DNA from: an uncultured Solirubrobacterales bacterium
GTDB lineage: Bacteria; Actinomycetota; Thermoleophilia; Solirubrobacterales; Solirubrobacteraceae
DNA length: 64,000 nucleotides
Direction: 5' to 3'
NCBI GenBank assembly: GCA_963746645.1
Contig: CAVVBQ010000005.1
Location: forward strand, 1,864,279-1,928,278
A program made the position numbers and the translations under genes. This document shows, in pieces, positions 24,789-64,000 of this stretch; the first letter of the stretch is position 1, and every line of letters begins with the position of its first letter. The notes under the pieces are model-generated. The model saw only the letters and a program-made list of their open reading frames with translations. It ran no database searches and was not told the origin of the DNA.

Positions 24789-24837
24789 TTGACATCATCC
24801 TAGGTTCATGTTACTGTCGGTCTCATGAATTACTAGG
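24789..24837 (+). promoter_or_regulatory. sigma70-type promoter with overlapping palindromic operator for module 1
   Basis: TTGACA (24789-24794)-N17-TACTGT (24812-24817); TTCATG-N13-CATGAA flanked by CCTAG/CTAGG. Confidence 0.65.
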
Positions 24838-24900
24838 GTCGTCGCACACCACTACAAAATAGGTGGTGCCGGCGCAGGTCGGGTGCTTGGGGGAGACGAG

Positions 24901-25668
24901 ATGGGAAGGCGCAGGACTAGAATTTTCCTGATTGCGCTGCTTGCTTGTGCCTGCGTGCTCCTAGCAGGCGCCGCTTGGGCAGCCGACACGCTGGTAGTAC
25001 ACGAGAGCTTCACCCCCAACAAGCTGGGGGTCCCCACCAATCTCTCGATAACCGCGAAATTCAGCTCCACTACCGGCGCCCCACCTTCGCCGATAATCAA
25101 GCTCACGCTCTATGCCCCCGCCGGCTTGAGAATCGACGCACGCGGCGCCGGCGCTTGCAGCGAACGCGTGCTTCAGCAACGTGGGCCTAGTGGTTGTCCC
25201 GCAAACTCGCGCGCGGGCTTCGGTGGCGGGGTGGGGCTCGTCGAACTGCCCAAATCTGTCATCCATGAGCCCTTCACAATCGACTTCTTCTTTGCTCCCT
25301 CCCAACATGGACATATCACTTTGCTCGCCTACGCCAGCGCCATCGCCCCAGTTTCGGTGGAACTTGTCGTGGTCGCTAGGGAAGTCCCTGCGCCCAAGCC
25401 CTACGGGCTCGGCTTCAGCGTCGAAATACCTACCGTCTCCACCATACCCGGGGCGTCCTTGGCCTCGGTCGAAAGCGCCTTTGCCACATTTGGGGCGACC
25501 AATGTCGCCTACTACGAGACAGTCCACGGCAAGCGCACGCTCGTGCATCTACGCGGCATGATCTCGCCCAAGCACTGCCCCCCAGGCGGCTTTCCAAGCG
25601 AGGGCAAGATCGACTTTGCCGACGGTACCACCTTGACCGTCAATCCCACAATCCCGTGCCCCAAGTAG
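24901..25668 (+). CDS. secreted 4-Cys beta-domain protein A (uncharacterised)
   Basis: Signal peptide; C-x12-CPxxS motif and terminal CP.GGF...CP; paralog of 25671-26411 and 59621-60457. Confidence 0.8.
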   Translation: MGRRRTRIFLIALLACACVLLAGAAWAADTLVVHESFTPNKLGVPTNLSITAKFSSTTGAPPSPIIKLTLYAPAGLRIDARGAGACSERVLQQRGPSGCPANSRAGFGGGVGLVELPKSVIHEPFTIDFFFAPSQHGHITLLAYASAIAPVSVELVVVAREVPAPKPYGLGFSVEIPTVSTIPGASLASVESAFATFGATNVAYYETVHGKRTLVHLRGMISPKHCPPGGFPSEGKIDFADGTTLTVNPTIPCPK

Positions 25669-25670
25669 GC

Positions 25671-26411: not shown

Positions 26412-26442
26412 AAAGTAACCACAGAGAAAGCGAGCGTCAGAG

Positions 26443-26958: not shown

Positions 26959-26979
26959 CTCTGCCCGAGGAGGCCAGCG

Positions 26980-27672
26980 ATGCTGGAGCTACGCGAACTC
27001 GTCAAGCACTATCCATCCATTGGCGGGGAGACGGTGCGGGCCGTCGACGGGGTGAGCTTGAAGGTGAATGGAGGCGAGATGGTCGCCCTCTACGGGCCGT
27101 CGGGATCGGGCAAGACGACTTTGCTGCTGATGGTCGCAACCTTGCTCGCGCCGACCGCCGGTGAGGTCCTCATCGGGGGGCGCGATATCTCCTCGCTGTC
27201 TGAGCGAGAGGCCTCACACTTCAGGCTCTCCGAACTCGGCTTCATCCGCCAGAACTTCGACCTGCTCCCCGGTGTGACCGCGATCGACAACACCGTGCTC
27301 AAGCTGCTCAAGGCGATGCGCTGGCGCGAGGCTCAGCGCGAGGTCACACCCCTGCTTGAGCAGCTCGGCCTCGGCGAGCGTCTGCACCATCGCTCGGAGA
27401 CGCTCTCCATGGGCGAGCGCCAGCGCGTGATGATCGCACGCGCTCTTTCGACCAAGCCCTCCATGCTGCTCGCCGACGAGCCCACCGGCAGCCTCGATAC
27501 CCAGCGTGGACGCGAAGTGCTTGAGCTGCTGCGAGGCCTGTGCCGCGAGCGAGGCGTTGCCGTCGTACTTGTCTCCCACGACCCGATGGCTGCGGATTAC
27601 GCCGACCGTGTCTATGGCCTGCGCGACGGCAAGCTCTCGGACAATCATGCCCCCGAGCGAATGCTCGCCTAA
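26980..27672 (+). CDS. ABC transporter ATP-binding protein (LolD/MacB-like)
   Basis: Walker A GPSGSGKT, signature LSMGERQ, Walker B LLADEP, H-switch VSHD. Confidence 0.95.
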   Translation: MLELRELVKHYPSIGGETVRAVDGVSLKVNGGEMVALYGPSGSGKTTLLLMVATLLAPTAGEVLIGGRDISSLSEREASHFRLSELGFIRQNFDLLPGVTAIDNTVLKLLKAMRWREAQREVTPLLEQLGLGERLHHRSETLSMGERQRVMIARALSTKPSMLLADEPTGSLDTQRGREVLELLRGLCRERGVAVVLVSHDPMAADYADRVYGLRDGKLSDNHAPERMLA

Positions 27673-27675
27673 GCC

Positions 27676-30198: not shown

Positions 30199-30203
30199 CC
30201 CAG

Positions 30204-30896
30204 ATGGCAGAAGACGAGCGGCGGCGCCCCTACAAACAGGTGGCGCGCGCGCAGGCCCAAGAGCGAACGCGCGAGACTCTGCTGCAAGCGGCAACTGAAG
30301 AGGTCGAGAAGGACGGCTGGAAGCAGGCATCGCTGGAGTCGGTCGCCGAGCGCGCGGGCGTCACCAAGCAGACAGCACTACGCCATTTCGGCTCCAAGCA
30401 AGGCCTACTCGATGCTGTTCTCAATCGAACAAGCTCGACGATTGTCAGAGAACGCGCCGAAGCGCCGGTCGGAGATATCCCAGGAGCGGTCGCCAACCTG
30501 GTGCGCCACTATGAGCGCTACGGAGACGTTGTCACGCGCCTACTGCCCTACAGGGACGCCGTGGTCCGTGTGCTCGGGCCAGACCGGCGCGACTCGCTCG
30601 CGCGTCGCGCCGTCGATCGCGGCCACGAAGTACACAGAGAGTGGGTCCTGAGCACGTTTGAGCCGCAGCTTGAGCATCTCGATGCGCGAACGCGCGAACG
30701 CCGGCTGGCGCAGCTTGTGGCGGTGTGCGACGTGTACATGTGGAAGATCCTCAGGCGCGACCTTGGCCTCAGCTTGACGCACGCCGAAGCAGCGCTCGTC
30801 GAGCTGATCGATCGTTTGGTCGAGCCAGACACGCCAAAGCGAAAGAAGAGCAAGCCACCAGTGCGAACACCGACACGACGACGCAAGCAGACATGA
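30204..30896 (+). CDS. TetR/AcrR-family regulator
   Basis: RETLLQAATEEV...SLESVAERAGVTKQTALRHFGSKQGLL; ATG 5 bp after permease stop. Confidence 0.9.
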   Translation: MAEDERRRPYKQVARAQAQERTRETLLQAATEEVEKDGWKQASLESVAERAGVTKQTALRHFGSKQGLLDAVLNRTSSTIVRERAEAPVGDIPGAVANLVRHYERYGDVVTRLLPYRDAVVRVLGPDRRDSLARRAVDRGHEVHREWVLSTFEPQLEHLDARTRERRLAQLVAVCDVYMWKILRRDLGLSLTHAEAALVELIDRLVEPDTPKRKKSKPPVRTPTRRRKQT

Positions 30897-32137
30897 CCCG
30901 TCTGCTTGCCTATACCTCACCGGCACGTGGACACCTATACCCAGTCGTGCCGATCATGGCGGAGCTCGCTCGGCGAGGCCATCACGCCTCGCTCTACACG
31001 CTTGCTGGCGAGCTTGACCATTTGGCGCCGCTTGGGATCGAAGGCTCGGCGATCGACTCCTCGATCGAGGCCATCCAGATCGAGGATTGGCGCACTCGAT
31101 CGCCGCTTGGTGCCATCCGTTCGGTGATGAGTACCTTCGTCGAGCGCTCGGCGCACGAGGCTCCCGACCTGCAGCGCGCGATCGCCCAGTGCGATCCAGA
31201 TGTGCTGCTGATCGACATCAACTGCTGGGGGGCCGCGACCGTGGCGGAGGCCTCGGGACTGCCGTGGGCGATGTACTCGCCCTACCTGCTTCCGTTGCCT
31301 TCAAAGGACGCCCCTCCCTATGGGCCTGGACTACGTCCCCTGCGCGGCCCGCTCGGGGCCATGCGCGATGCGATTGTGGGCCGCATCGGCGAGCGCATCT
31401 CCTTCCAAAGGGTGATGCCACAGGTTAATTCGCTTCGTATCCAGCACGGTCTACCGGCGCTCGTGCGGTTCACCGAGTTGCTCGAACGTCCAGCCGTACT
31501 GCTATCGCTTACTGCCGAGGGTTTCGAGTATCCGCACAGCGACTGGCCCGCGAACGTTCAACTCGTGGGCCCGATGAATTGGAGCCCACCTGGGCCCCCA
31601 CAAACCAACAAGCCATCTGGGCTGTCGGACTTGGACGACCCCTTGGTGCTAGTCACCTGCTCAACCGAGCGCCAGCGCGATAAGCGCCTGTTGCACGTGG
31701 CACTGGAAGCGCTGCCGGCCGCCGGCATCTCCGTGCTTGGTACCACCGCGGCGCATGACCCCGAGACATTCCACGCCCCAGCCGGCAGCAGGGTCGTGCG
31801 CTTCGCATCACACGAGGCGATCCTAGGACGAGCAACGTGCGTAGTGTGCCACGGCGGCTTGGGGATCACCCAAAAGGCATTGAGCGCGGGGGTCCCCGTC
31901 GTGGTGGTCCCCTTCGGACGAGATCAAGCCGAGACCGCGAGACGCGTCGAGTTCGCGCAAGCAGGCGTTCGCCTCTCTCCCCGCCGTCTCACACCGGCTC
32001 GGCTCTTGCGGGCGGTGCGCACGGCAATCGATCTACGACCCGGCGCACAGCGTGTGTGTCAGACGTTTGCCGCGGCGGGAGGCCCACCAGCGGCCGCGGA
32101 TGCGATCGAAGCGCTCGCCTCGACTCGTCAAGAGTAA
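30893..32137 (+). CDS. family-1 (MGT/UGT-like) glycosyltransferase
   Basis: PARGHLYP N-terminal motif; FASHEAIL...VVCHGGLGITQKALSAGVPVVVVPFGRDQ donor-binding motif; ATGA overlap. Confidence 0.9.
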   Translation: MTRLLAYTSPARGHLYPVVPIMAELARRGHHASLYTLAGELDHLAPLGIEGSAIDSSIEAIQIEDWRTRSPLGAIRSVMSTFVERSAHEAPDLQRAIAQCDPDVLLIDINCWGAATVAEASGLPWAMYSPYLLPLPSKDAPPYGPGLRPLRGPLGAMRDAIVGRIGERISFQRVMPQVNSLRIQHGLPALVRFTELLERPAVLLSLTAEGFEYPHSDWPANVQLVGPMNWSPPGPPQTNKPSGLSDLDDPLVLVTCSTERQRDKRLLHVALEALPAAGISVLGTTAAHDPETFHAPAGSRVVRFASHEAILGRATCVVCHGGLGITQKALSAGVPVVVVPFGRDQAETARRVEFAQAGVRLSPRRLTPARLLRAVRTAIDLRPGAQRVCQTFAAAGGPPAAADAIEALASTRQE

Positions 32138-38381: not shown

Positions 38382-39356
38382 ATGGTCGGTCGGCTTCGGT
38401 TTCACATGAGCCTGTTCGCGGGCTTTGTCGTGCTCGCAGCGGTACTTGCGGCGATTTGGCTTGCTCCCGCCGCCGGGGCGTACGGACGTCACCATGGCCA
38501 ACCTGCGCGCGGCGGGCCCCCACACGGGGGACTGCCTCATAAAGGCCCATTTCCCGGGAAACCGCCTCACGGAAAACCGCCACACCCAATTCCACCAGCA
38601 CCCAGCTATCTCGCGCTCGGCGACTCGCTTGCGTTTGGCTACTCCCAGGCGAAGTTCAACAGCCTCTTCCCGAACGAGAACCCCGCCGCCTATAACACCG
38701 GCTACGTCGATGACTTCGCTCACCTGCTGCGCATTGGCCACCCAAATCTGCAGGTGATCAACGACGGCTGCCCCGGTGAGACGACCGAATCGTTCATCAA
38801 GGGACCGTGCGAATACCAGCTGGCTTTCCCTCTGCACCACCCCTATGTCGGCGGGCCAACTTCATCGCAGCTCTCTGACGCCCTCACCTACTTGCAGGCC
38901 AACCCCAACACCGGCACTATCACGCTCGACATAGGTGCCAATGACGCGCTCGGCGTGATCGAGCACACGTGCGAAAAGAACGTGGAATGTGTCATCAAAG
39001 AAGCACCCGCTCTGTTTGCGCATATCGGCGCGAACCTCGGCCTGATCTTGGCCGACCTACGGGGCGCCGACCCTCACGCCACGATTGTTGTACTGGGGCT
39101 GTACAACCCATTCGGCGAAAAGCTGCCTGGTGGAAACACCTTGACGGCACAGCTCAACGAAGTTATGAAGCAGGTCTCTGCAACGGTCAGCGCGCGCTTT
39201 GCCAATCCATTGCCGCTGTTCAATCCGCCAGGCGCGCTTGAAGAACCGACAATCTGCTTGCTCACAAACATGTGCACGCCGCTCGAAGACATTCATCCCA
39301 CCGACCTCGGTTATGCGGTGCTCGCAGGAGTGATCGCCAAGCAGTACTTCTTCTGA
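38382..39356 (+). CDS. secreted SGNH/GDSL hydrolase
   Basis: Signal peptide, His/Pro-rich linker, LALGDSL, IGAND, DIHP. Confidence 0.9.
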   Translation: MVGRLRFHMSLFAGFVVLAAVLAAIWLAPAAGAYGRHHGQPARGGPPHGGLPHKGPFPGKPPHGKPPHPIPPAPSYLALGDSLAFGYSQAKFNSLFPNENPAAYNTGYVDDFAHLLRIGHPNLQVINDGCPGETTESFIKGPCEYQLAFPLHHPYVGGPTSSQLSDALTYLQANPNTGTITLDIGANDALGVIEHTCEKNVECVIKEAPALFAHIGANLGLILADLRGADPHATIVVLGLYNPFGEKLPGGNTLTAQLNEVMKQVSATVSARFANPLPLFNPPGALEEPTICLLTNMCTPLEDIHPTDLGYAVLAGVIAKQYFF

Positions 39357-42665: not shown

Positions 42666-43426
42666 GCGGGGCCGGCACCGACGTGTGCATACACCGGCAC
42701 ACCCTTAAGCTTCAAGAGCGCGGCCTGTGAATAGATCGCGACGAGCGTGCACAGTGTGGTTTTCCGCAACTTGCCAAGCGCGGCGCGCGTGAGCTCGCGC
42801 CGGCGCAAGGAGAGCGTCGCATCGAACGCAACTCGCCCTTCGCGACTGCTCGAGATGTGGACAGAGAGCATCTGCGCCGGTGCGGTCAGGCGCCACTCGT
42901 AGCGGTGATCCATCCCCATGAAGGGGGACACGTGCAAAGCCTTGGCAAAACCACCAGCCAGCACCGGACTGTGAGCGTCCTTGGGCGCCCGCTCCTCGTC
43001 CCTGGAACCCGCTTGGAGAACGTAGGTGTGGCGTTCACCCCACGGCGTGTTGGTGACCTCCGCCACGACGGCATCCACCTCGTCACCTGCGCGATCCATG
43101 CAGTAGTAGAAGCTCACAGGGTTGAAGCAATGGCCCAGCGCGCTCAGGTTCGCCAGTAGTCTGATCGGCCCCTGCGGTCTCACCCCCGCCTGTGCCTCAA
43201 CGGTGTCGCGCACCACATCTTGAAGCGGCGTGCCTGCGTCGCCGAGATAGTCACAGCGGCGGAAACGGATCGAGCTTGGGGTGCGGGCGAGCAAGCGCCC
43301 GTCGAGCAGGCCCGGCAGCTCGTCGAGGTCAATGTAGGCGAGCGCGAGCCGCTGGCGAAACTCGTGCGAGCGCACGGCAAAGCGCCGGTGACGCACCGTT
43401 CCTTCGTAGATCGCACTGGCACTCAC
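42662..43426 (-). CDS. DUF1365 protein
   Basis: GTVRHRR, FNPVSFYYC, EVTNTPWGERH, KALHVSPFM. Confidence 0.9.
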   Translation of the reverse strand: MSASAIYEGTVRHRRFAVRSHEFRQRLALAYIDLDELPGLLDGRLLARTPSSIRFRRCDYLGDAGTPLQDVVRDTVEAQAGVRPQGPIRLLANLSALGHCFNPVSFYYCMDRAGDEVDAVVAEVTNTPWGERHTYVLQAGSRDEERAPKDAHSPVLAGGFAKALHVSPFMGMDHRYEWRLTAPAQMLSVHISSSREGRVAFDATLSLRRRELTRAALGKLRKTTLCTLVAIYSQAALLKLKGVPVYAHVGAGPA

Positions 43427-49591: not shown

Positions 49592-50707
49592 CTACTTCGG
49601 CGGGAACAGTTCGAATTCGTTTATCGCGACCGTGCCGGGGTTGGCGGCGGTCGAGGAGATGGGCGCCTTGGCGAGCCAGAGCACGATGTAGCGGTAGCCC
49701 TTGCCCTTCGTTTTCAAGGCCAAGGTGGTGTTTTTCTTCTTTAGGACTTTCAGTCCTACGATCCGATTCCAGGCGGGATCGGAGATCGAGGCGGGCAAGG
49801 TTTTGCCGACCGCCCCATACACTTCTACAGTGATGCCGGGGGTGGTTGTCTTGACGACCACACTGCCTAGCTTTTCGGGGCTCTTGAGGTCGAGCACCAG
49901 GCCCTCGGCCATCTTCGGTGCAACGGTGGGCTGCACCTGAGCCGTCCAAGCTGTGCCGGCTTCGCCGTCGATCGCGAGACTGGGATCGCCGAACAGGTTG
50001 GCTGGATAGGCGTAGGGGTTGTAGACGCTGGCGGCATCGGTGTCCAAGAGGATCGGACTGGGCGCTTCGGCACCCGTTTCGGAGTCTTCCGAGCCGGTGC
50101 TTTCTTTCGGGCTCGTCGTCGATTCGCTGCTCGTTTTGGTGGGCGTTGTCGTTGTGCTCGGCGTTTTGGTCGTTTTCGTTTCGGGCGGGAACAAGGAGTT
50201 GTTGGCTTCCGTGTTGGCGCCACCGCTGGGTGTGGGCGTGGGCGTTTGTGAGGGGATCGGGGGCGTGGCTTTGACGGTGGTGGGCGTGCCGGGCGTGGGC
50301 GTCGTGCCAGGCGTGGCAGTCGGCGTGGTGGGTGTTGTCCCCGGCGTGGGCACAGAAGAGGTGGTCGTGCCCAAGCCAGTCACGGCAACTACGGCGACCT
50401 TCGGCTTGGGCTTGGTCTTGTTGAGCGCTGCGTACGCGGCGACCGAGGCACCGATCACGAGCAAGGCGGTCGTGGCAAGGATCGCGATCCCGGTGCGCCA
50501 ACCTGGGCCACCGCTGAGGCTGCCGGGCACGCCGGTACCACACTGAAGGCACCAATCTTGGCCATCCTGTAGAGGCAGCCCACATTTCGCGCACGCCCGC
50601 GTCGCAGCTGGGGCCCCTGAAGGAGACCCGTTCGGGCCAGTGTCACTAGACCCCTGTGCTCCGTTGGATGCGACGTCAGACGTCGGCTTGGTGAGTTGAT
50701 CACTCAC
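49592..50707 (-). CDS. single-pass membrane protein: zinc ribbon, TM, Pro/Thr-rich stalk, C-terminal discoidin-like domain
   Basis: CAKC...CLQC, hydrophobic helix, PTTPTATPGTTPT tract, AIDGEAGTAW. Confidence 0.65.
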   Translation of the reverse strand: MSDQLTKPTSDVASNGAQGSSDTGPNGSPSGAPAATRACAKCGLPLQDGQDWCLQCGTGVPGSLSGGPGWRTGIAILATTALLVIGASVAAYAALNKTKPKPKVAVVAVTGLGTTTSSVPTPGTTPTTPTATPGTTPTPGTPTTVKATPPIPSQTPTPTPSGGANTEANNSLFPPETKTTKTPSTTTTPTKTSSESTTSPKESTGSEDSETGAEAPSPILLDTDAASVYNPYAYPANLFGDPSLAIDGEAGTAWTAQVQPTVAPKMAEGLVLDLKSPEKLGSVVVKTTTPGITVEVYGAVGKTLPASISDPAWNRIVGLKVLKKKNTTLALKTKGKGYRYIVLWLAKAPISSTAANPGTVAINEFELFPPK

Positions 50708-51723
50708 AGCTGACCATTCTTACACCTCGGCGGGGGACAACCCCCCGCCAGGATGTCATTGCCCGTGGGGCTCAGCTTGGAATCCAGTTCGAGCTGCCAG
50801 TAGTAGCGCGTGAAGGTAACGTCGCGGCGGTACTCGCCGATGTGCGGGGCGAGGTGCTCTCCCGCGGCCATGCGCACGATCAACTCGGGGTAGGTGCGGC
50901 CGGGAAGCGCGGCGAGAGCCGGCGCGGCGAAAGCGCCGCCGAAGCGGGTGTTGACGTCGGTGATGCGGATGCCCAAGGAGGGGTCGCGGAACACCTGGAT
51001 CGTGGCGGGCCCGCGCACGCCCAAGGCCTCCATCACCGTGTGCCCCAAGTCAACCAAGTCGGGGGCCTCGATGACTGTGCCCTTGATCGACTCTCCCCCA
51101 CGCGACTCGAGCATGGTCCGAGGAATCGCGTTTAGGCAGCGTCCGCTTGAATCTCCGAGGCAGTCGATCGACAGCTCGGGGCCGTCCATCGCACGCTGCA
51201 CCATGGTGGGCTCGTCCACGTAATCGACGAAGAAGCGTGCCTGCGAGGGATCGTGGGCCAGGTGGATCGAGCGTGCTCCCGATCCCTGGCGCGGCTTGAC
51301 CATCACCGGGTAGTCGAGTGCGTCGAGGTCGGCATCGGGGAGCGCTGTGGGAGGTGAAGGCAGGCCGAGACGCTCGAGCAAGAGGTGGGCCTCGTACTTG
51401 TCATACGTTGCGCGAGCTACCTCCGCGGAGGGCACAAGCGCCGGAAGGACCTCGCTTTCCCGGGCCCGGGCGAGCGTCTCGATGTCGAGATCGGTGAGCG
51501 GCAGGACCGCACCCACCCCGTGGAGCTCGCACAGGCGTACAAGCTCCGGTACATACTCAGGATCGTCGATCGGCGGGGCACTCGCACGCACTTGGGCCGC
51601 GTACTGGGCGGGGGCGAGCGGGTTGGGATCTACTGCCACAACCGTCGTGAGCGCGGCGAAGCAGGACACGATGTCATAACGCTTGCCTACCCCCGTGAGC
51701 ATGATGGCGGGAGTCACTCCCAT
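50704..51723 (-). CDS. ATP-grasp enzyme (carbamoyl-phosphate-synthase-like, EPS-linked)
   Basis: YDKYEAH, VMVKPRQGSGA, ELSID, DVNTRFGG. Confidence 0.85.
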   Translation of the reverse strand: MGVTPAIMLTGVGKRYDIVSCFAALTTVVAVDPNPLAPAQYAAQVRASAPPIDDPEYVPELVRLCELHGVGAVLPLTDLDIETLARARESEVLPALVPSAEVARATYDKYEAHLLLERLGLPSPPTALPDADLDALDYPVMVKPRQGSGARSIHLAHDPSQARFFVDYVDEPTMVQRAMDGPELSIDCLGDSSGRCLNAIPRTMLESRGGESIKGTVIEAPDLVDLGHTVMEALGVRGPATIQVFRDPSLGIRITDVNTRFGGAFAAPALAALPGRTYPELIVRMAAGEHLAPHIGEYRRDVTFTRYYWQLELDSKLSPTGNDILAGGCPPPRCKNGQL

Positions 51724-52298
51724 CCTCCCGTTTGGCCCTTGTAGAGGCCCTCGCCACCGAAGACGATCGTCAAGGTGCGCGCCAGGATACGCAGGTCGAA
51801 GGCGAGGGAGCGATGCTCGATGTAGTAGAGGTCAAGCTCGATGCGCTCGCTCCAGGGCAAGGAGGCGCGTCCATTGACTTGGGCCCAGCCGGTGATGCCA
51901 GGTCTGATCACAAGCCGCCCGCGCTGGCGCTCTGTGTACTGAGCCACTTGCACGGGGATTGTGGGGCGGGGCCCGATGAAGGACATATCTCCGCGCACCA
52001 CATTTACGAGGTTGGGCAGCTCGTCGAAGGAGGTCCTGCGCAGAAAGGTTCCCACGCGTGTGACCCGCGAGTCGTTCTCGTTGATGGCAAGACCCGCGCC
52101 GATGTGCTCGGCACCGTCCACCATGGTGCGCAGCTTGAGCAAGTCAAACGGCCTGCCGTCCTTGCCCACTCGGCGCTGCCTATAGATCGGGTGTCCACGC
52201 GACTCTGCGCGAATCGCGATCATCGCACAAACCATCACGGGCGCCGCCAGGACCAACACGATGCATCCGCCAACGACGTCAATCGCGCGTCTGATCAT
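51714..52298 (-). CDS. priming sugar (phospho)transferase, bacterial sugar transferase family
   Basis: KLRTM, RRTSFDELPNLVNV, MSFIGPRP, PGITGWAQVNGR. Confidence 0.95.
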   Translation of the reverse strand: MIRRAIDVVGGCIVLVLAAPVMVCAMIAIRAESRGHPIYRQRRVGKDGRPFDLLKLRTMVDGAEHIGAGLAINENDSRVTRVGTFLRRTSFDELPNLVNVVRGDMSFIGPRPTIPVQVAQYTERQRGRLVIRPGITGWAQVNGRASLPWSERIELDLYYIEHRSLAFDLRILARTLTIVFGGEGLYKGQTGGWE

Positions 52299-53515
52299 CG
52301 GGTGCCCTCGGCGGCATCCCAGGAGGCGGCGGTGCCGTGACGCAACCAGTCCCACAGGCCGGCAGCCGGAGATGCCGTGGTGAGCACGTAATAGCGGGCG
52401 ATCAAGAAGAGTCGCGTGCGAAGCGATCCCGCGAGCGCAGCAGCCAAGAGTAGGCCGAGCTGCAAGACCAAGGTCAACAGGTAGAGGGAGCCAGCGCCGG
52501 CAGCTACCAAAGCGACGTTGGCGACCAAGGCCAAAGTGTGCAGAAACGGGGTCAAGTAGCGAAGCAGGCGGTGGGAGAAGATCATCGAGGCATAGGAGGG
52601 TGAGTAGCCGCGTGGAGAGAGCATTCCACCACGTAGGACGATCGGCCACGTGTGGCTCATCATGCGCCGCTTGCGCTTCCACTCTCCCTCGATCGAGGGG
52701 ACCATCTTCTCTGAGGCGAGGGCGCTTGATACCTCGATGGCGCGCCAGCCACGCTTGACCATGTTGAAGGGGAATGAGAGGTCGTGGCCCATGATTGGGT
52801 CGACCACGATGTAGGAGGAGCGCCGTGTGGCATAGATCGCGCCATTGCCGGCCGTGATCGAGCACAGACGTGACTCGCGCGCGCGCAAGGCCATCTCATA
52901 ACGCCAGTACATGCCCTCCTGATTGGTTGCTTGAACGCCGGGAGCAGAGCTCCTCAGAAAGCGCACACGTCCACAGGCGTAGCCGACGTGTGGATCGGTG
53001 AAAGCGCCCACGAGCTCACGCAAGGCGCCGGGCTCCCACAAGGCGTTGGCGTCGGAGAAGGCCACGATATCCCCGCGCGCCTGCTCGACAGCGGTGTCCT
53101 GAGCGACGATCTTGCCGCCGCGAGGCAACTCGAGTACGACGTCAGCGCCTGCGACGCGCGCGCGGAGTGCAGTCGCGTCAGAGCACCCGTCGCAGACCAC
53201 GATCAACTCGAAGAGCTCGCGCGGATAGTCGAGCTGCAAGGCATTCTCGATCTTCGCCTCGATCACTTCCTGCTCGTCATGAGCCGCCACGATCAAAGAG
53301 ACAAAATGCGCCCCCTGCTCGTGCGTGGCCACGATCGCCGGCGCTGCCTCGGTACTGCAATTTTTAGGGATCGCTGTTCGTGCGTACTGGTCCGAGCGGG
53401 CCCTTGGCGCTGGCGCGAGGACGCGTGCGAGCAGGCCAATGGCAAGCGCGTACCCGATCTGGGTCCACAAGATCAGAGCGATGCAAGCCCAGAACACGAC
53501 TTCGAGCGCGGTCAT
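52295..53515 (-). CDS. family-2 glycosyltransferase
   Basis: IVAAHDE, DGCSD, FSDAN, GHDL, RKRRM; N- and C-terminal TMs. Confidence 0.9.
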   Translation of the reverse strand: MTALEVVFWACIALILWTQIGYALAIGLLARVLAPAPRARSDQYARTAIPKNCSTEAAPAIVATHEQGAHFVSLIVAAHDEQEVIEAKIENALQLDYPRELFELIVVCDGCSDATALRARVAGADVVLELPRGGKIVAQDTAVEQARGDIVAFSDANALWEPGALRELVGAFTDPHVGYACGRVRFLRSSAPGVQATNQEGMYWRYEMALRARESRLCSITAGNGAIYATRRSSYIVVDPIMGHDLSFPFNMVKRGWRAIEVSSALASEKMVPSIEGEWKRKRRMMSHTWPIVLRGGMLSPRGYSPSYASMIFSHRLLRYLTPFLHTLALVANVALVAAGAGSLYLLTLVLQLGLLLAAALAGSLRTRLFLIARYYVLTTASPAAGLWDWLRHGTAASWDAAEGTR

Positions 53516-54748: not shown

Positions 54749-55912
54749 GTGACGCTTGCCGTGACGTTCGTGCTCGCGGCGCTCAGCTACTGGCTCACGG
54801 TGTTTCCTCGAGTGTGCCTTCACATAGCGCGCTGGCAGCGACAGGCAAAGCGTATTCCCGACCCCGTGCTACGCGGATTAGCGCTCGCCGCGCTGTCGGA
54901 AAAGCGTGGCAACATCGAGGGCGCAGCCGCGTTCGCTGCGTTCGCACCCTGGGCGAGCCGGGGTGCTGCCACTAAGGCAACCGGTGCCTTCCAGGCCGCT
55001 TATAACCTGCTCGACATGCTCGGCGAGCAGCCGAGTGCTGACCCTGTGCTCGATGGAGAGCGCCTGCACAATGCACTGCTGTTTGCCTTGGGCTGGCCTG
55101 CTCGCACACCGCCTGCCGACGGCGTAGATCCAGGCGTGCAGACACTCGACTGGTACGAGCACCATCCTCAAAGCAATGACGGCGGCTACCTGGACAGGCT
55201 TTTGGAGGAGTGCCGCGGCGCATTCGCGAGTCTGCCTAACTACGCCGTCGCTGCGCCTGCGGCACGGGCGGCAGCGGAGCGAATCGTCGCCTTTCAGAGC
55301 CTTAACCTGAGCGAGTCTCAAGGTGACCATGCGGGGCTCGAGCAGTGGGCACACAACGCCACCCCACCAGGCGCCGGACTGCAGTGGTGGGAGACCGCCG
55401 CCGCCGCTGGCTCCTCACTTGGGGTACACGCACTGATCGCGGCGGCGGCCGACGTAGAGCTTGAGGTGTGTGACGCGAAGCTGCTCGAACAAGCCTATTT
55501 TCCGTGGATCGGCGGACTGCACTCGCTGCTTGACAACTTGATCGACAAACATGAGGACGAGGCCGCGGGCCACCGCAGCCTCGTCGAGTACTACGGCCCT
55601 GAGCGTGCAGCCGAGCGAATGCGTTGGATGGCCGAGCAGGCGACCTTTCTGGCCGAAGATCTCCCCCACAGTCGACGCCATACGGTGGTGCTCGCAGGCA
55701 TGATCGGCAACTACCTATCTACCCCAGAAGCGCACACTGAGGAGCTGGCTCCGGTTAGCCAAGCAGTACTGGCAACCACGGGAGGTCTCGCCCGACCAAC
55801 GATGTTGGTATTCGAGCTACGACACCTGCCCGACCGCCTGCACAAAACTGTCGCTCACGGAGAACGATGCGTAGAGCATCCCGCAGCGCCCGACCTGGAC
55901 AGTTTCAGATAG
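54749..55912 (+). CDS. DUF2600 / tetraprenyl-beta-curcumene synthase (YtpB)-like terpene synthase family
   Basis: IPDPVLRGLAL, WWETAAAAGSSLG, YFPWIGGLHSLLDNLIDKHED resemble YtpB blocks; start uncertain (54701 or 54749). Confidence 0.8.
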   Translation: MTLAVTFVLAALSYWLTVFPRVCLHIARWQRQAKRIPDPVLRGLALAALSEKRGNIEGAAAFAAFAPWASRGAATKATGAFQAAYNLLDMLGEQPSADPVLDGERLHNALLFALGWPARTPPADGVDPGVQTLDWYEHHPQSNDGGYLDRLLEECRGAFASLPNYAVAAPAARAAAERIVAFQSLNLSESQGDHAGLEQWAHNATPPGAGLQWWETAAAAGSSLGVHALIAAAADVELEVCDAKLLEQAYFPWIGGLHSLLDNLIDKHEDEAAGHRSLVEYYGPERAAERMRWMAEQATFLAEDLPHSRRHTVVLAGMIGNYLSTPEAHTEELAPVSQAVLATTGGLARPTMLVFELRHLPDRLHKTVAHGERCVEHPAAPDLDSFR

Positions 55913-56014: not shown

Positions 56015-56036
56015 GTTACAAGGGAGAGGGACACGC

Positions 56037-56741
56037 ATGCTGGAGCTGCGAGATCTCGTCAAGCATTATCACACAGCCGGGGAGGAGACCGTACGCGCGG
56101 TCGATGGCGTGTCGCTGTCGGTTGCTACGGGTGAGATGGTGGCCCTATATGGGCCAAGCGGCTCGGGTAAGACGACACTGCTGTTGATGGTCGCGGCGCT
56201 GCTAGCGCCCACCAGTGGAGAGGTACTCGTCAACGGCCGCGACATCTCCTCGCTCTCAGAGCGCGAGGCGTCGCACTTCCGTCTTGCAGAAATGGGGTTC
56301 GTGCGCCAGAACTTCGACCTGTTGCCGGGAGTTACGGCGATCGACAACACGGTGCTCAAGCTGCTCAAGAACACGCCCTGGAAGGAAGCCCACGAACGCG
56401 TGCAACCGCTGCTCGAGCGCCTGGGCCTCGGCGGGCGCCTCACGCACCGCTCTGAGACGCTCTCGATGGGCGAGCGCCAGCGCGTGATGATCGCGAGAGC
56501 GCTCTCTACCGAGCCCAAGCTACTGCTCGCGGACGAGCCGACGGGTAGCCTCGACACGCAGCGCGGACGCGAGGTGCTGGAGCTACTGACCGAGCTTTGC
56601 CGCGAACGTGGGGTGGCGATCGTGCTGGTTAGCCACGATCCGCAGGCCGCCGGCTACGCCGACCGTGTGCTGGCTTTGCGCGATGGCCGACTGGTCGACT
56701 ACGACCCCGAGCAGGGGTTTGCCCCTGCCAACACCAAGTGA
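56037..56741 (+). CDS. ABC transporter ATP-binding protein, paralog of 26980-27672
   Basis: GPSGSGKT, LSMGERQ, LLADEP; long stretches identical to copy 1. Confidence 0.95.
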   Translation: MLELRDLVKHYHTAGEETVRAVDGVSLSVATGEMVALYGPSGSGKTTLLLMVAALLAPTSGEVLVNGRDISSLSEREASHFRLAEMGFVRQNFDLLPGVTAIDNTVLKLLKNTPWKEAHERVQPLLERLGLGGRLTHRSETLSMGERQRVMIARALSTEPKLLLADEPTGSLDTQRGREVLELLTELCRERGVAIVLVSHDPQAAGYADRVLALRDGRLVDYDPEQGFAPANTK

Positions 56742-59331: not shown

Positions 59332-59620
59332 AGCGCAACGCCGATAAGTGGCACACCGCAAGCAGCGGCGCACCCGCCAGGTCAGCACAAGCGGTTGGCC
59401 AGCACGAGCAGCGCGTGCCGGCGAGCAGCTGTACCGGCAAGCCACCACCGCGTATTCCCAGACTGAGCTGGCCGATCAGGCTGCCGTTCCACAGTGCTGC
59501 CATCGGCATACCCCAGGCGATCACTCGCCAGAGTGAAGGCTCACCAAGGCTAGCCTGGGGATGCCCAAAATCCCGCCCCGCCGCTGGACTAGCTGGACGG
59601 GACGGGACCTCAAGTCGCGC

Positions 59621-60457
59621 TTATTTCTTCTTGCGGACCGGCGGCGGACAGGGCACGTTATGCGTCGCGACAACTTGGCTGCCATCGAGGAACGTGAACT
59701 GCGCCGAGAACGGAAAGCCGCCGCTTGGGCATTTCGTTGGAAGCGAGATGCCCTGCGGTTTGTAGCCGACTAGTTTTCCGTGGACGCGCTTGTAGTACGT
59801 GAGATGACTGGGACCGATCGTTGAGTTGACGTTGATGATCGACACCGGCGGTCCGTTGGTGACGCTTTTGATTTCTGGGATCGTGGTGTCGAGATCGCCC
59901 CCGAAAGCGCCTTCCCCGGGCAACAGTTCGCCCGCGAAGACGATCTGCGCGTAGACCGGAGCAAGTCCGTTGGCATAGAAGAGCACCACGATGTTGCCTT
60001 CGTGCGGTGGTCCCATCAAAGCCTGGATTTCAGGGATCTCATGGCCCGCATCGGCCCCGAATGGGACCTCGACAAAGGCGCTGCCATGGCCAAGCCGAGA
60101 GTTCGGCGGGCAGCCGGCGATGCCTTTTTCGACCAATGCTTGGGGCTTGCAGATGGAAAGCCCAAGCGTGGTCGTCACGTAGTTCATGCCCTTGGGCATG
60201 CGCAGGCTGACATGGGTAAGCGGTGATGGCAGCCCACCGGTGGTGCTGCCGATCGTAAAACCGAACCCAATCGTCGTCGAAGCACCCAGCCTGTTGGGGC
60301 TAAACGACGTGTGCAAAGCAACCGTCTCTTCTGCCTGTGCCGAAGCACATACCCAGGAAGGCACAAGCAGGCAGCCGGAGACGACTAGCGCAAGCGCTAG
60401 GGCATGTCTTGGCAGGGGGATGCGGCTGAGGCCCCCGCCTATCCGCACTCTGGTCAA
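59621..60457 (-). CDS. secreted 4-Cys beta-domain protein A' (paralog of A/B)
   Basis: Signal peptide; SFSPNRLG, C-x12-CPPNSRLG, YYKRVHGK, CPSGGFPF...CP. Confidence 0.8.
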   Translation of the reverse strand: MTRVRIGGGLSRIPLPRHALALALVVSGCLLVPSWVCASAQAEETVALHTSFSPNRLGASTTIGFGFTIGSTTGGLPSPLTHVSLRMPKGMNYVTTTLGLSICKPQALVEKGIAGCPPNSRLGHGSAFVEVPFGADAGHEIPEIQALMGPPHEGNIVVLFYANGLAPVYAQIVFAGELLPGEGAFGGDLDTTIPEIKSVTNGPPVSIINVNSTIGPSHLTYYKRVHGKLVGYKPQGISLPTKCPSGGFPFSAQFTFLDGSQVVATHNVPCPPPVRKKK

Positions 60458-60471
60458 GGTGTCTCCAGCCG

Positions 60472-60981
60472 CTAATACGACATTGGTCCGCTCACGCGCA
60501 CCGTGACGGCGTCGTTAGAGCGCTGGATCGTGCCGCTGAAGCTGAGAGCGGACGCTTTTGCTTTGGAGTAAGTGCCGCTCCCTTTGGTGATCGCCAGAGT
60601 GCCAGAGAAGGTGGCGGTGGATCCCGCAACCCGATAGCTGGCTTTGGCGCTGCCGCTGATCGAGCCGCCACCTTTTGGATAGACCTGAACGTTGGCGCTC
60701 ACGCTGCGGGTCGAGGTGACCTTGAGCTGAAGATAGAGCGTCCCGGCGAGCGTGCCTTTGGCGGCGCCGGACTCTTTGAGTTCGACTCCGTGTTTATTCT
60801 GCAGATGTAGGCTGGCACTGTCTTTCAAAGTGAGCGAGCGCGCAGCTTTGGCGTGCGGCGACGCGGCGCCGGCGGCACCCGTCCCGAAGACAACGATTGT
60901 GGCTGTCGCGCCTAGTGCAAGCGCGGCAGACGAGATTCGCAACCGCGCACTCATGCGCTGGCGTGCTGGCTTGGTCCCCAT
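60472..60981 (-). CDS. small secreted all-beta protein C' (paralog of C)
   Basis: Signal peptide; YPKGG.SISG, LSFSGTIQRSNDAVTVRVSG; RBS GGAGGG before ATG 60981. Confidence 0.8.
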   Translation of the reverse strand: MGTKPARQRMSARLRISSAALALGATATIVVFGTGAAGAASPHAKAARSLTLKDSASLHLQNKHGVELKESGAAKGTLAGTLYLQLKVTSTRSVSANVQVYPKGGGSISGSAKASYRVAGSTATFSGTLAITKGSGTYSKAKASALSFSGTIQRSNDAVTVRVSGPMSY

Positions 60982-61230
60982 TGATCCCTCCATGTGGCTG
61001 TTGACGTCGCTTCCCATTAGAACAGACCCCTCTCCTCCGAGCGACTTCCTAAGCCCAAAGCCTAGTCCACATAACAGAAAGGCAGGGCAGTTAGACAATT
61101 CTAGTGCATATAGGCCTACGAAGTTCAACCCGTCAGGTAGGCGCGAGTTGCGGGAAAGCCGAGATCGTGGAGCCTTTGCTGTGACGCTACGCAAGAGCGC
61201 GCCCCGCCGCGCTACCCAACTTCAAGAGCC

Positions 61231-62217
61231 CTACCCGGCCGCACGACCACTAAAAGCAACCTCGACCTGCCGGCCCTTCGCGGTGAGCCTCCACGCGTTG
61301 GGCTCACCGCGGGCCCTGGGCATGCCAGCCTTTTCGAGCAGACCAAGGTTGGTGAGGCGCATGAGCAGCTTTGAGATCTGGCCCTGGTCTGAGACCCCGG
61401 AGGCTTCGGCGAGCTTACGATTGGAGGCCCCAGGCGCTTGGGCGACCGCCATCAGGACGCGCATAGTGCGATAGGTGAGGCGCATGTCGAGGCCGCGCAG
61501 TGGATCGACGGCTGGGCGGCTGGCGCGGGGCGGCAGCTTGGGGGTGGGTCGCGAGAGCTCGCGCTTGGCCGCGGCCGCTCCGAGATAGGGCAACACGATC
61601 ATCGACATCAGCGGACCCAGAAGCTCGAGCAGGGGAGCGGACTCGTCCTCCAACATGCGTGAGTGGATGAGCGAGAACACGCCGCCAACGACCCCTTCGG
61701 CGGTGAGTGGTGGTGGCTCTTCGCGGCTCTTCGCTTCGCCTCGCCCCTCTTCCACGGCCGCGATGACTTGGGTTAGAGCGCGCCGGCGACGGCCTAGTAC
61801 GTTGGGTCCGGCTGCAAGCGCCTCCGCTATCACGAGCCGGCCAATCGCCTGCTCGTAGTCCAAGAGATCGAGCAAGGCGGCGAGCGCCGCTCTGATCCGC
61901 TCACGCCACTTCCCCGGCCGCTGATAGACGGGCACAACGGTCGCGGCGATCCGGTCGATCGCGGCGTCGAACGCCGCCAGGAAACAGTCCTCGCGGTCTT
62001 CGAAGATCTCGTAGAACGTGCGCCGTGACACCCCTGAGCGGGCTACCACCTGACCGACGCTCGCCTCACCAAAACCGTGCTCGGCAACCACCTCGACCAT
62101 GGCTGCGAGCATTCGGGTGCGCTGGATCTCTGCGACATGCGCGCGGCCGAGTCCGTTGCCTCCCTCCTCGGGCCCATCGAGCGCGGAATCGTTGCTTGGC
62201 GCTTCTCTGGAGGGCAT
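61231..62217 (-). CDS. TetR-family regulator fused to C-terminal MarR-like winged HTH
   Basis: N-terminal ASVGQVVARSGVSRRTFYEIF; C-terminal SNRKLAEASGVSDQGQISKLLMRL...WRLTAKG. Confidence 0.85.
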   Translation of the reverse strand: MPSREAPSNDSALDGPEEGGNGLGRAHVAEIQRTRMLAAMVEVVAEHGFGEASVGQVVARSGVSRRTFYEIFEDREDCFLAAFDAAIDRIAATVVPVYQRPGKWRERIRAALAALLDLLDYEQAIGRLVIAEALAAGPNVLGRRRRALTQVIAAVEEGRGEAKSREEPPPLTAEGVVGGVFSLIHSRMLEDESAPLLELLGPLMSMIVLPYLGAAAAKRELSRPTPKLPPRASRPAVDPLRGLDMRLTYRTMRVLMAVAQAPGASNRKLAEASGVSDQGQISKLLMRLTNLGLLEKAGMPRARGEPNAWRLTAKGRQVEVAFSGRAAG

Positions 62218-62292
62218 GAGTTGGTACCTCGGGTCGAATACCTCGGATGGCAAGCCGCCAGACTCGGGCGGCCGCCCAGAAGCGCTCTCCGT

Positions 62293-64000
62293 TTATTTCT
62301 TCCGGCTTTTGTGCCCGTTGTGCCGCGCCTTTACTTTGCGGGTCTTGTGTTTGGTGCAGCCTGTTGGTGTGACGGGTGTGTTTTGTGTGAGTGTTGCGCC
62401 GTTTTGGGCGGTGAATGTGGTGGGCATGGTGAGTTTGGTGGTGCAGAGGTTGCCGTTTGCGGCGAGCGCGCTGTTTGGTCCTTGGGGTAGCTTCAGGTCG
62501 AAGTCGCCGATCGGCACGTCGGGGACTTGCTTGAAAGTGGTGCTCGTGATCCCGGCTTTGCTGATGAACGTCGTACCGACTAGGTCGACGGTGACGCCGT
62601 AGCCTTGTAGGACTACGACGAGGTCTGGGAACGCCTCCCCTCCGTGCGAGACGAAATACACAGGACCGTAAAGCTCCACAGGCAGGACCGGCGTGTGTGC
62701 AATGGCAGTCCCGATCTTTGATCCTGCCGGACATGACGCGGGGTTCTCGTCAAACGTTGCTGCTGCACAGGCCTTTTGGAGGGTGGTGAGCCTTGAGGGT
62801 AGTTGCTTTGGCAGACTGACCTTGACCTTCGCGATGTTCGCTTGGTTACCCATCGAGTTCTTGGGATAGGTGAGCTTCGCGTCGATGCTCGCACCACTAG
62901 CCCGCGACGTCCTTCCACTCGTCGATACTTTGAACGAGGGTTTGAACCCGAGACGAGCACAGTTCGTTACTTGGAAACGAGACGACACAGGCTCTAGGAG
63001 TCCCTGACCGCCGGTGAGAGTTCCCGTGATCGCTTGGGGATTGCAGTCGGTGGGGTTGAAAATGAATCCCGGCCGGTCGATGTTCACGTTGATGACCCGC
63101 AGGTCGAGCGGGATTCCTTGCAGCATTGTTGGTAGGGGATCAGTGTTGACCGTTAGCGCTGCTGTATGCGGGTCAACGGTGATCGTGCCTCTGACTACGA
63201 CGGTGCCGAGATCGAAAGGTCCAGCCTTTGCCGGTACAACGACGCTCAGCCCGTACGGAGCACCCTTGTAAGAGCCAGTAGCGAATACCTGCCCGCCGTG
63301 CACATAGAACGGTGTCGCACCGGCGCCAGCGGCCACCGTTAGGTCCCCGATCTCAGATTCCAGACCGCACGTCCCTTGAGAGGCTAGTGGTTCCTGGCAC
63401 AGTTTGATCGTCGAGAGGGTCCCCAACAAGCCAGTCGGCAAGTGCATGCTGACCCCACCCAACTGCTGGTCCCCATCAGCCCTGCTCATCGTCAAGGACA
63501 GCGGGCTGAACGCACCAGCCTGGTTGCTGACCGTTCCCGCCGCAAAACCTGGAGCGAACTGAGCAGGCGCAGGACAAGGACCGCCACCCGGACCACTCGT
63601 GATCTGAAACGAATCATCCACCGTCACAGGTGGGTTACCCGACCACGGAGTTAGTTCGACACTCGTCGTATACGTCCCGCACTCGTGCGGATTGACCAAC
63701 GGTGACCTGGTTCCGCCATCGAAGTCGACCTTCAATTCCCCGAACGGCAATTGGGGGCTGTTATCGAACACCGACCTGATCTGTCCCGTCTGAGGATCCA
63801 GTTCGACGTGACCCGGGATCTTCAGGATCACCCCGTGACCTTCGGCCACCAGGTACAGAGCAATCAACGACCCGAACGGGTTTTCGCTCTGCCGGCCGAG
63901 GTACAGATGACCCCTCAGGGGATCGGATAGCACCGGCGTGACGATTTCAACCGAAGCGAGCTGTGAGGAATCGGGACATTTCGCCGGGGTTCCGTGATCG
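62293..64000 (-). CDS. large secreted-type protein made of tandem 4-Cys beta domains (5'-truncated by window)
   Basis: Frame open to window end; repeats with C-x9/11-C-xxxS-x-[IL][GA] and a second Cys pair; basic tail KHKTRKVKARHNGHKSRKK. Confidence 0.85.
   Translation of the reverse strand, partial: DHGTPAKCPDSSQLASVEIVTPVLSDPLRGHLYLGRQSENPFGSLIALYLVAEGHGVILKIPGHVELDPQTGQIRSVFDNSPQLPFGELKVDFDGGTRSPLVNPHECGTYTTSVELTPWSGNPPVTVDDSFQITSGPGGGPCPAPAQFAPGFAAGTVSNQAGAFSPLSLTMSRADGDQQLGGVSMHLPTGLLGTLSTIKLCQEPLASQGTCGLESEIGDLTVAAGAGATPFYVHGGQVFATGSYKGAPYGLSVVVPAKAGPFDLGTVVVRGTITVDPHTAALTVNTDPLPTMLQGIPLDLRVINVNIDRPGFIFNPTDCNPQAITGTLTGGQGLLEPVSSRFQVTNCARLGFKPSFKVSTSGRTSRASGASIDAKLTYPKNSMGNQANIAKVKVSLPKQLPSRLTTLQKACAAATFDENPASCPAGSKIGTAIAHTPVLPVELYGPVYFVSHGGEAFPDLVVVLQGYGVTVDLVGTTFISKAGITSTTFKQVPDVPIGDFDLKLPQGPNSALAANGNLCTTKLTMPTTFTAQNGATLTQNTPVTPTGCTKHKTRKVKARHNGHKSRKK

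Follow-up and report, generated by a model that had tools for sequence, protein, structure and literature searches.

Characterised ATP-binding cassette (ABC) systems of the Type VII (MacB/LolCDE-class) superfamily, namely MacAB-TolC, LolCDE-LolA, FtsEX-EnvC and YbbAP-TesA, work at the outer face of the membrane, together with an extracytoplasmic partner (PMC12646458), and the hydrophobic compounds that YbbAP extracts are handed to the soluble protein TesA (PLoS Biol 2025, PMC12646458; PDB 9GE6-8). It is the outside partner (MacA-TolC, LolA, EnvC or TesA) that defines each of these systems, and a handful of partner types is known. Two further described loci, attEFGH of Agrobacterium and Rv0986-0988 of M. 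tuberculosis, unite in one operon an ATPase, a double FtsX-type permease (Rv0987 corresponds to AttF plus AttG) and a secreted protein, AttH or Rv0988; their own function is unknown. Here we analysed a 64,000-nucleotide stretch of DNA (the window) from an uncultured Solirubrobacterales bacterium (assembly GCA_963746645.1, contig CAVVBQ010000005.1, positions 1,864,279 to 1,928,278), in which two related modules, copy 1 and copy 2, each combine an ABC ATPase and a fused permease with secreted proteins of two families, called A (genes A1, B1 and A3) and C (genes C1 and C2). We tentatively read the modules as Type VII extractors of a hydrophobic envelope molecule with the A, B and C proteins as outside partners, a reading that we place somewhat short of probable. 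This would not be a new kind of machine, and its function we infer from context; what appears to be new here, judging from the sequence, are the two families of partner proteins, a link to a terpene synthase and a candidate TetR operator.

Copy 1 is a tight operon of seven plus-strand genes, A1, B1, C1, ATPase, permease, TetR and GT1 glycosyltransferase, which follow one another at distances of 2, 31, 21, 3, 5 and -4 nucleotides (nt), in gene order. In copy 2 the DUF2600, ATPase and permease genes on the plus strand converge with minus-strand genes coding, in order of transcription, for a repeat protein, a regulator that joins a TetR-type to a winged-helix domain (TetR-wHTH), C2 and A3 (Table 1). 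Scanned with hidden Markov models (HMMs) of the A and C families, which had been built from alignments of their homologs, the window holds exactly three A-family and two C-family genes. A preliminary description of this DNA had listed the genes of both copies and the order in which those of the minus strand are transcribed, and all of them were found in place.

Among the NCBIfam models, those of LolD, DevA, FtsE, MacB-N and YbbA fitted the ATPase best (171-193 bits), all of them under the equivalog cutoffs, and the LSMGE signature, by which the preliminary description had characterised the transporter, is kept in 79 of 82 module ATPase orthologs. Hydropathy predicts ten transmembrane segments in permease 1, at residues 22-40, 261-371 (three segments), 402-449 (two), 475-493 and 716-838 (three), with outside loops of about 220 residues after the first and after the seventh, that is, between segments 1 and 2 and between segments 7 and 8. 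When a profile of seven permease sequences was searched against the PDB, the first match was LolC (E 1e-6), followed by LolF, LolE, MacB and YtrF; a YbbP chain was absent from the matches at E<=1. By sequence, both machines are members of the Type VII ABC superfamily.

With YbbAP-TesA of E. coli the modules share a fused permease with ten transmembrane segments, two outside domains of the Porter/Sabre type, a separate ATPase and a linked soluble partner. In that system, however, the partner is a GDSL hydrolase, whereas here it would be two novel families, A and C; similarity to YbbP is undetectable in sequence, the host is of the Gram-positive type, the signature is LSMGE and there are two paralogous systems, accompanied by TetR and GT1 or by DUF2600. 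No GDSL/SGNH (TesA-like) partner adjoins the modules, the GDSL lipase gene at 38382-39356 lying 6 kb downstream of copy 1 and outside the core. LolCDE-LolA, in turn, provides the closest sequence matches of permease and ATPase and has the same logic, an extractor with a soluble beta-barrel acceptor, but the scores here are far under the equivalog cutoffs (193 against 308 bits for LolD and 27 against 362 bits for lolCE), LolC and LolE are a separate pair while the present permease is fused, LolA is an open half-barrel while C is predicted to be a small closed barrel of eight strands and about 120 residues, and the order Solirubrobacterales has no known outer membrane. LolA, LolB and LppX are absent from the top 50 Foldseek matches of C, and the matches of A include a single entry of DUF1329, a family that we take to be LolA-like, at rank 44 with a template-modelling score (TM-score) of 0.17-0.19.

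The likeness to AttE-H and Rv0986-0988 that had been drawn in the preliminary description stands as far as architecture is concerned, which is of the same kind. It does not extend to the partner, which in those operons is of the AttH/CrtC type, a domain that A and C do not contain (Pfam at E<=10), and the nearest solved relative of the permease is LolC. The same description had placed a prenyl synthase next to Rv0986-8, which could not be confirmed and is not stated in the review consulted. A tblastn search with permease 1 against 72,556 PLSDB plasmids, a set in which the attFG plasmid was not confirmed to be included, returned five partial matches (coverage <=35%) from Rhodococcus/Nocardia.

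Turning to the secreted proteins, A1, B1 and A3 each carry a signal peptide and exactly four cysteines in the mature part, and these four are invariant in the alignment of the family, in agreement with the four-cysteine label under which they had been introduced. The A family comprises about 1500 clusters at 50% identity, and at least 1616 clusters of A3 homologs, 65-92% identical, were found. For C1 the number of homolog clusters (90% identity) is at least 1586, all of them named hypothetical. The module had been introduced as apparently undescribed, and neither A nor C matched a characterised family in Pfam, NCBIfam, PADLOC or PDB sequence profiles (PDB at E<=1), Pfam matches at E<=10 across all 67 aligned members of the two families contained nothing recurrent, and PADLOC recognised no defence system, apart from a trivial match to LolE_TM. 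The AlphaFold2 (AF2) model of A3, with a predicted local distance difference test score (pLDDT) of 82, is beta-rich and has one helix between the first pair of cysteines.

C1 and C2 consist of a signal peptide and a basic, cysteine-free domain of about 120 residues with 26 invariant positions. The preliminary description had called C a beta-barrel protein, and the AF2 model of C indeed has eight antiparallel strands that form a closed up-and-down barrel, with a pLDDT of about 65-85 in the early part and about 90 at residues ~90-170. The best Foldseek matches were PodA (5K21), the DUF3224 structures 2Q03 and 2OOJ, AbyU, avidins, lipocalins and BcnA, all of them weak; these nearest folds belong to small barrels whose ligands or substrates are hydrophobic small molecules, and C is modelled as a small calycin-like beta-barrel. 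To the calycin-like barrels (PodA, DUF3224, AbyU, avidins, lipocalins and YceI/BcnA) the predicted C corresponds in size and in its eight-strand up-and-down topology, but it has no sequence relationship to them and is secreted, basic and free of cysteine. A narrower assignment of C to the polyisoprenoid-binding YceI proteins was rejected; it had been suggested by one JGI name (P0083), but BcnA stands only 48th in the Foldseek list and Pfam YceI was not matched.

Barrel enzymes, PodA, AbyU, PyrI4 and a dirigent-like synthase, are found among the best fold neighbours of C, and C is very highly conserved, with 26 invariant positions. Both points would agree with modules that work as FtsEX does, with ATP-driven motion of the outside domains switching on an extracellular enzyme. 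FtsEX-EnvC/RipC and YbbAP-TesA act in this manner, and the enzyme would here be an A-family protein or C, such as a hydrolase of wall or lipid material or a barrel enzyme that modifies terpenoids. We judge this improbable: neither A nor C showed a catalytic motif or a match to a hydrolase family, and the TM-score between A and peptidases in Foldseek is about 0.2.

The signal peptides of the A family deserve separate attention, because that of A3 carries a lipobox-like VSGC. According to the PROSITE rule, a lipobox-like cysteine is present in the signal peptides of 40 of 55 A1-type, 7 of 11 A3-type and 13 of 69 B1-type proteins; in the A1 and A3 types (24901-24990 and 60340-60457 in the window) it precedes a stretch rich in Ala, Ser and Pro and an AxA site for signal peptidase I (SPase I). 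The A, B and C proteins might be the handled objects. In one version, similar to the Lol pathway, A1 and A3 would be lipoproteins that the transporter extracts and C then takes over, to be set free in the wall or in an outer layer; in another, that of the preliminary description, the whole set would build a disulfide-bonded surface structure. The frequency of the lipobox in the A1 and A3 types, the four invariant cysteines, the basic tail found on both A3 and the neighbouring repeat protein, the very strong conservation of A3 and the positions of LolC and LolD as nearest solved relative of the permease and best model of the ATPase, respectively, all agree with such a role. We nevertheless hold it to be quite unlikely, given that the same signal peptides have a good AxA site for SPase I, that B1-type proteins mostly lack the lipobox, that C is a closed barrel with neither LolA nor LppX in its Foldseek lists, that nothing resembling a sortase, S-layer or pilus came to light, and that DUF2600 and GT1 would be left without a role.

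The conservation of the module was followed by scanning the C alignment against one genome per GTDB species. This gave 182 relatives, the best 80 of which correspond to 79 loci that are anchored on C alone, all of them from other genomes and all Solirubrobacterales or Solirubrobacteraceae metagenome-assembled genomes (MAGs); their gene content was mapped by tblastn and HMM. Every one of the 79 loci has ABC genes adjoining C, and in 76 of them an A-family gene stands beside it, one of the three exceptions being a contig end. The preliminary description had taken the gene set for a selected functional unit whose components should occur together in other genomes, and this near-absolute synteny bears it out. 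Two layouts were found. Type 1, to which copy 1 belongs, reads A-(A)-C-ATPase-permease and continues with TetR in about 60% of the loci and GT1 in about 50%; type 2, to which copy 2 belongs, has C-A beside (DUF2600)-ATPase-permease, in convergent or co-directional arrangement.

This synteny also bears on the resemblance to loci of the lactococcin-972 type, in which secreted proteins are likewise encoded upstream of an FtsX permease and an ATPase. If the modules were bacteriocin-plus-immunity loci, A, B and C would be toxins and the ABC transporter would confer self-immunity, and the ATPase does score 154 bits with TIGR03608, the model of the Lcn972-group ABC proteins. That model, however, ranks below LolD, DevA, FtsE and MacB, Pfam finds no Lactococcin_972 domain in A, B or C, and bacteriocin loci are usually sporadic and variable, while the loci described here keep their synteny throughout the order and their A3 proteins are 65-92% identical, so that we regard this explanation as very improbable indeed.

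Two related arrangements were observed among the loci. A third, distant module (L038, positions 1-5739; also L044 and L022) contains a PadR regulator, a degenerate ABC ATPase, a second ATPase with 57% identity to ATPase 2, an 857-residue double-FtsX permease (34-38%) and a DUF2600 gene (38%); no C- or A-family gene was detected alongside, and the module repeats the link between DUF2600 and ABC genes. In L037 (13958-20366), the type-1 module is followed on its 3' side by MMPL, a DrrAB-type ABC-2 transporter, LtrA and a stand-alone A-family gene, which indicates that the A family also occurs outside the module.

The BLASTP identity between copy 1 and copy 2 is 81% for the ATPases, 62% for the permeases and 56% for the C proteins, and 27-32% within the A family (A1/A3 31%, A1/B1 28% and B1/A3 32%). 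The same codon is used at only about 50% of the identical residues, i.e., the synonymous sites are saturated; the preliminary description had remarked on their divergence, and the low share of identical codons means that the duplication is old. When 71 permeases were placed in a neighbour-joining tree, all 8 sequences of type 2 grouped in a single clade, free of type-1 members. As judged from these comparisons, the two copies are ancient paralogous systems that belong to separate orthologous lineages, and a recent duplication or gene conversion is ruled out by the codon comparison together with the tree. The word "duplicated", if understood as a local event, therefore has to be given up. The related statement that every paralog pair is intact can be kept for the ATPase, the permease, C and the A family and has to be dropped for the TetR pair, which gave no BLASTP match at 1e-3 and has only the TetR_N helix-turn-helix (HTH) in common, so that the two regulators are not demonstrable paralogs. 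The closest relative carries both modules on one contig, about 25-45 kb apart, like the window.

In front of copy 1, the palindrome TCATGTTACTGTCGGTCTCATGA is located 12 nt downstream of a TTGACA box and 73 nt before the start of A1. The pattern TGTTAC-N5-GTAACA, searched for with up to two mismatches over 1.48 Mb, occurs a single time in the 64-kb window. Of the 40 type-1 loci with TetR, 29 have it once 5' of their first A-family gene, or 32 if sites slightly further upstream are included; it is present in 1-2 of the 26 type-1 loci without TetR, where of the two cases one is a cut-off contig and the other a poor match, and there are two stray matches only in the 1.48 Mb. This co-occurrence of palindrome and regulator across genomes speaks strongly for the 23-bp palindrome as the likely operator of the operon's own TetR, and it supports for copy 1 the TetR control that had been assumed. 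In six type-1 operons that lack TetR (L046, L051, L065, L067, L074 and L077) a different perfect palindrome, CTAAGTGTATACTTAG, was observed at the place expected for the TetR-type operator, some 200-240 nt 5' of the first A gene, which suggests that another regulator may act on these operons. Between the candidate operator and the start of A1, the 5' leader of copy 1 also contains an AT-rich hairpin, CACCAC-N10-GTGGTG (24847-24868), that matches no Rfam family.

The last gene of the copy-1 operon, GT1, matches the TIGR01426 MGT model over its full length (E 1e-33), with 117 bits at a cutoff of 260, and the models that fit it best are those of macrolide-family, OleI and Mgt glycosyltransferases. 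Such matches would suit a function in resistance or detoxification: a TetR-induced, MacB/BceAB-like transporter would act against lipophilic or lipid-II-cycle antibiotics, GT1 would inactivate macrolide-like compounds, and A, B and C would capture the compound or shield its target outside the cell. A TetR with its operator is typical of drug-inducible efflux, the ATPase resembles the MacB and bacteriocin-export families, and in B. subtilis the YtpB substrate heptaprenyl diphosphate (heptaprenyl-PP) disturbs bacitracin resistance mediated by BceAB. We consider this explanation unlikely, although it keeps a real chance of being correct. The A-B-C-ABC core is kept in at least 25 loci without TetR and GT1, two ancient and syntenic paralogous systems look like housekeeping and not like accessory equipment, the score of GT1 is far under the MGT cutoff, and the known resistance systems of the MacB/Bce kind need no three dedicated secreted proteins.

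In type 2, the DUF2600 gene lies directly 5' of the ATPase gene in 8 of 10 loci. The window protein matches PF10776 with 229 bits and is homologous over residues 2-333 to the tetraprenyl-beta-curcumene synthase 5YO8 (E 1.5e-32); for copy 2, the terpene link of the preliminary description is upheld by this position and this homology. PF10776 is linked to EC 4.2.3.130, and in B. subtilis, where ytpB is paired with ytpA, YtpB converts heptaprenyl-PP. Compared with YtpB/BalTS (DUF2600, PDB 5YO8), the copy-2 protein is a full-length homolog that shares the second Asp-rich motif, LLDxxxDxxED, which is intact in the ten module-linked copies, while the first motif differs, as discussed below. The literature on YtpB that was consulted offers no parallel to an operon that joins DUF2600 to a Type VII ABC transporter, as in copy 2.

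If the modules are Type VII extractors with A, B and C as outside partners, they could operate as follows. By mechanotransmission, as known for the Type VII family, ATP hydrolysis would be turned into work on the outer face of the membrane, with no path for the substrate across it. The A, B and C proteins would be exported by Sec by means of their own signal peptides and would be partners, not cargo; having these signal peptides, they would not be secreted by the ABC transporter, and the earlier idea that the module secretes or assembles them is unlikely for this reason and because Type VII systems act on the outer face. The permease would draw a hydrophobic molecule of the envelope out of the outer leaflet, the calycin-like barrel C, small and basic, would receive it, and the four-cysteine A-family proteins could be membrane-proximal or wall-associated parts for docking or acceptance. 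The likely substrate of type 2 would be what the DUF2600 large-terpene synthase of its own operon makes, or else the polyprenyl compound that this enzyme consumes; that of type 1 would likely be a lipophile glycosylated by the co-transcribed MGT-type GT1, with the operon repressed by its own TetR at the 23-bp palindrome and opened, presumably, by a small lipophilic inducer. The data show the gene content, the conservation, the modelled folds, the topology and the joint occurrence of palindrome and TetR. The contact of A, B and C with the permease, the direction of transfer and the identity of the substrate are points that we infer, and to the specific substrates of type 1 and type 2 we attach less confidence than to the mechanism.

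Several results weigh against such an extractor. For A3, Foldseek returned no convincing PDB neighbour (best E 8e-3, TM-score <=0.44), and the matches of C do not go beyond an E of 4e-3 with TM-scores of 0.4-0.5; the very strong conservation of C and A3 is compatible with an enzymatic or a structural role as well. TetR and GT1 are absent from about 40% of the type-1 loci, as is DUF2600 from 2 of 10 type-2 loci, and the genes that would define the substrate are consequently not obligatory. Finally, the first motif of 5YO8, DYLDNLCD, reads N(Y/L)LDxLxE in 10 of 10 module-linked DUF2600 copies (NLLDMLGE in the window); the Asp-rich motifs of terpene synthases are catalytic, and the alteration of motif 1 makes the enzyme activity uncertain.

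Table 1. Position of the two modules in the 64,000-nt window and basis of each assignment.
Feature	Position	Strand	Basis or remark
Promoter-like TTGACA (24789-24794), then 23-bp palindrome (24806-24828)	24789-24828	+	candidate TetR operator
A1, secreted four-cysteine A-family protein, 255 aa	24901-25668	+	signal peptide; A-family HMM E 6e-98; no Pfam/NCBIfam match
B1, second A-family paralog, 246 aa	25671-26411	+	HMM E 2e-84; signal peptide ends in ASAQA
C1, secreted basic Cys-free protein, predicted small beta-barrel, 171 aa	26443-26958	+	AF2 model, Foldseek
ABC ATPase 1, signature LSMGE	26980-27672	+	ABC_tran 3e-34
Permease 1, fused double FtsX/MacB-type, 840 aa	27676-30198	+	FtsX x2 + MacB_PCD (6e-8)
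TetR-family regulator within the operon	30204-30896	+	TetR_N 2e-11
GT1 glycosyltransferase, MGT (macrolide/lipophile) subfamily type	30893-32137	+	EryCIII-like_C, UDPGT; 4-nt overlap with TetR stop
DUF2600 protein, large-terpene-synthase homolog, first gene of the copy-2 ABC operon	54761-55912	+	PF10776 1e-67
ABC ATPase 2 (LSMGE)	56037-56741	+	ABC_tran 7e-35
Permease 2, 838 aa	56815-59331	+	FtsX x2; type-2 clade
A3, A-family four-cysteine protein, convergent on permease 2	59621-60457	-	basic C-terminal tail …VPCPPPVRKKK
C2, second C-family protein, predicted barrel	60472-60981	-	C-family HMM E 4e-64
Regulator with TetR_N and C-terminal MarR-like winged helix	61231-62217	-	TetR_N 6e-9, MarR_2 3e-5
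Large Cys-rich secreted repeat protein, C-terminal 568 codons in the window	62293-64000	-	open reading frame stop-free to base 63999; no Pfam match

The TetR-wHTH regulator of copy 2 has its best NCBIfam match in a FasR-like model. The repeat protein next to it runs past the end of the window; the version of the closest relative (L083, 5220-8168) is 91% identical, has 982 residues with 18 cysteines and is internally duplicated (residues ~335-526 against ~758-937, E 3e-10). With A3 the repeat protein shares a C-x12-CPxxSxLG stretch, a terminal pair of cysteines and a basic K/H/R tail after the final cysteine. Membership in the A family was rejected for it; the HMM does not detect it, and hhalign aligned it with an E of ~0.01 and 4% probability over the C-x12-CPxxSxLG stretch. 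It adjoins the type-2 module in close relatives only, and in L083 a gene for a 1244-residue fn3/NHL/PD40 protein was observed upstream of it.

The DNA between the two copies codes for a Na+/H+ exchanger, a cupin, MMPL, a P450, a GDSL lipase, LtrA, SDRs, a cupredoxin and hydrolases, further for a CFA-synthase/DUF1365/amine-oxidase triad and for a glycan cluster (ATP-grasp, polyprenyl-phosphate sugar transferase, GT2 and GT4). The best matches of the P450 are terpenoid oxygenases, and P450, GDSL, LtrA and SDR genes recur near type 1. The preliminary description had counted lipid enzymes as linked to the module, but most of the intervening lipid genes adjoin it in close relatives only; the intervening genes are an envelope-lipid neighbourhood that lies outside the unit. 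The glycan cluster (GT4, GT2, Bac_transf and ATP-grasp) was likewise rejected as a part of type 2, since the close relatives L003 and L083 have it and the remaining eight type-2 loci do not.

Some genes of the window were recorded in their own right. On the minus strand at 41424-44667, CMAS, DUF1365 and flavin amine-oxidase-like genes stand in a row; next come a cupredoxin gene and one of the TenA/haem-oxygenase-like kind. Downstream of the ATP-grasp gene, an open reading frame (ORF) of 371 codons (49592-50707, minus strand) has no Pfam and a weak GltJ-like NCBIfam match, and a counterpart of 375 residues is kept in the closest relative. The longest ORFs of the sugar transferase (51714-52865) and of GT2 (52295-53515), both on the minus strand, overlap by 570 nt; the sugar transferase of the relative has only 194 residues, so that the true start here is probably near 52298. 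Upstream of copy 1, the plus-strand gene at 7557-10673 codes for a 1038-residue protein with PD40 beta-propeller repeats and an LCAT/PGAP1-like lipase domain, of which the closest relative has a 1026-residue counterpart upstream of its copy 1. An ORF of 2992 codons at 11445-20423 (minus strand) is rich in NHL repeats and also has RHS repeats, SGL/beta-propeller regions and DUF6531; it codes for a giant RHS/teneurin-like surface protein, possibly of the polymorphic-toxin type.

The G+C content of the window is 60-66%, and its nearest relatives are uncultured Solirubrobacterales MAGs from soil. An Rfam scan of the whole window returned zero RNA families, and scans of both modules for sigma-70 and terminator consensus gave no excess over shuffled background. 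The sequence was present in soil DNA metagenomes only and in zero RNA runs, and in the literature search the module was described in none of the papers found. It is so far known from MAGs alone.

For specialists in ABC transporters and in the actinobacterial envelope, the interest of the modules lies in the following points. A and C are large, uncurated families and obligate neighbours of a transporter in an abundant, barely studied order of soil actinobacteria, and they are a candidate new class of partner for Type VII ABC systems. The copy-2 operon gives the DUF2600 large-terpene synthases a first genomic context that hints at where their product may go, and copy 1 defines a candidate pair of regulator and operator. 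Carried furthest, the data would be compatible with an envelope-lipid trafficking route of the Solirubrobacterales' own, made up of a Type VII extractor, a barrel carrier C and possibly lipidated four-cysteine acceptors, a functional analogue of LolCDE-LolA in which one paralog would serve a C35-type terpenoid made by DUF2600; we give this extended form a slim chance. If it were true, a lineage that is regarded as Gram-positive would possess a counterpart of LolCDE-LolA, and the first route for the export or hand-off of sesquarterpenoid-like membrane lipids would have been found.

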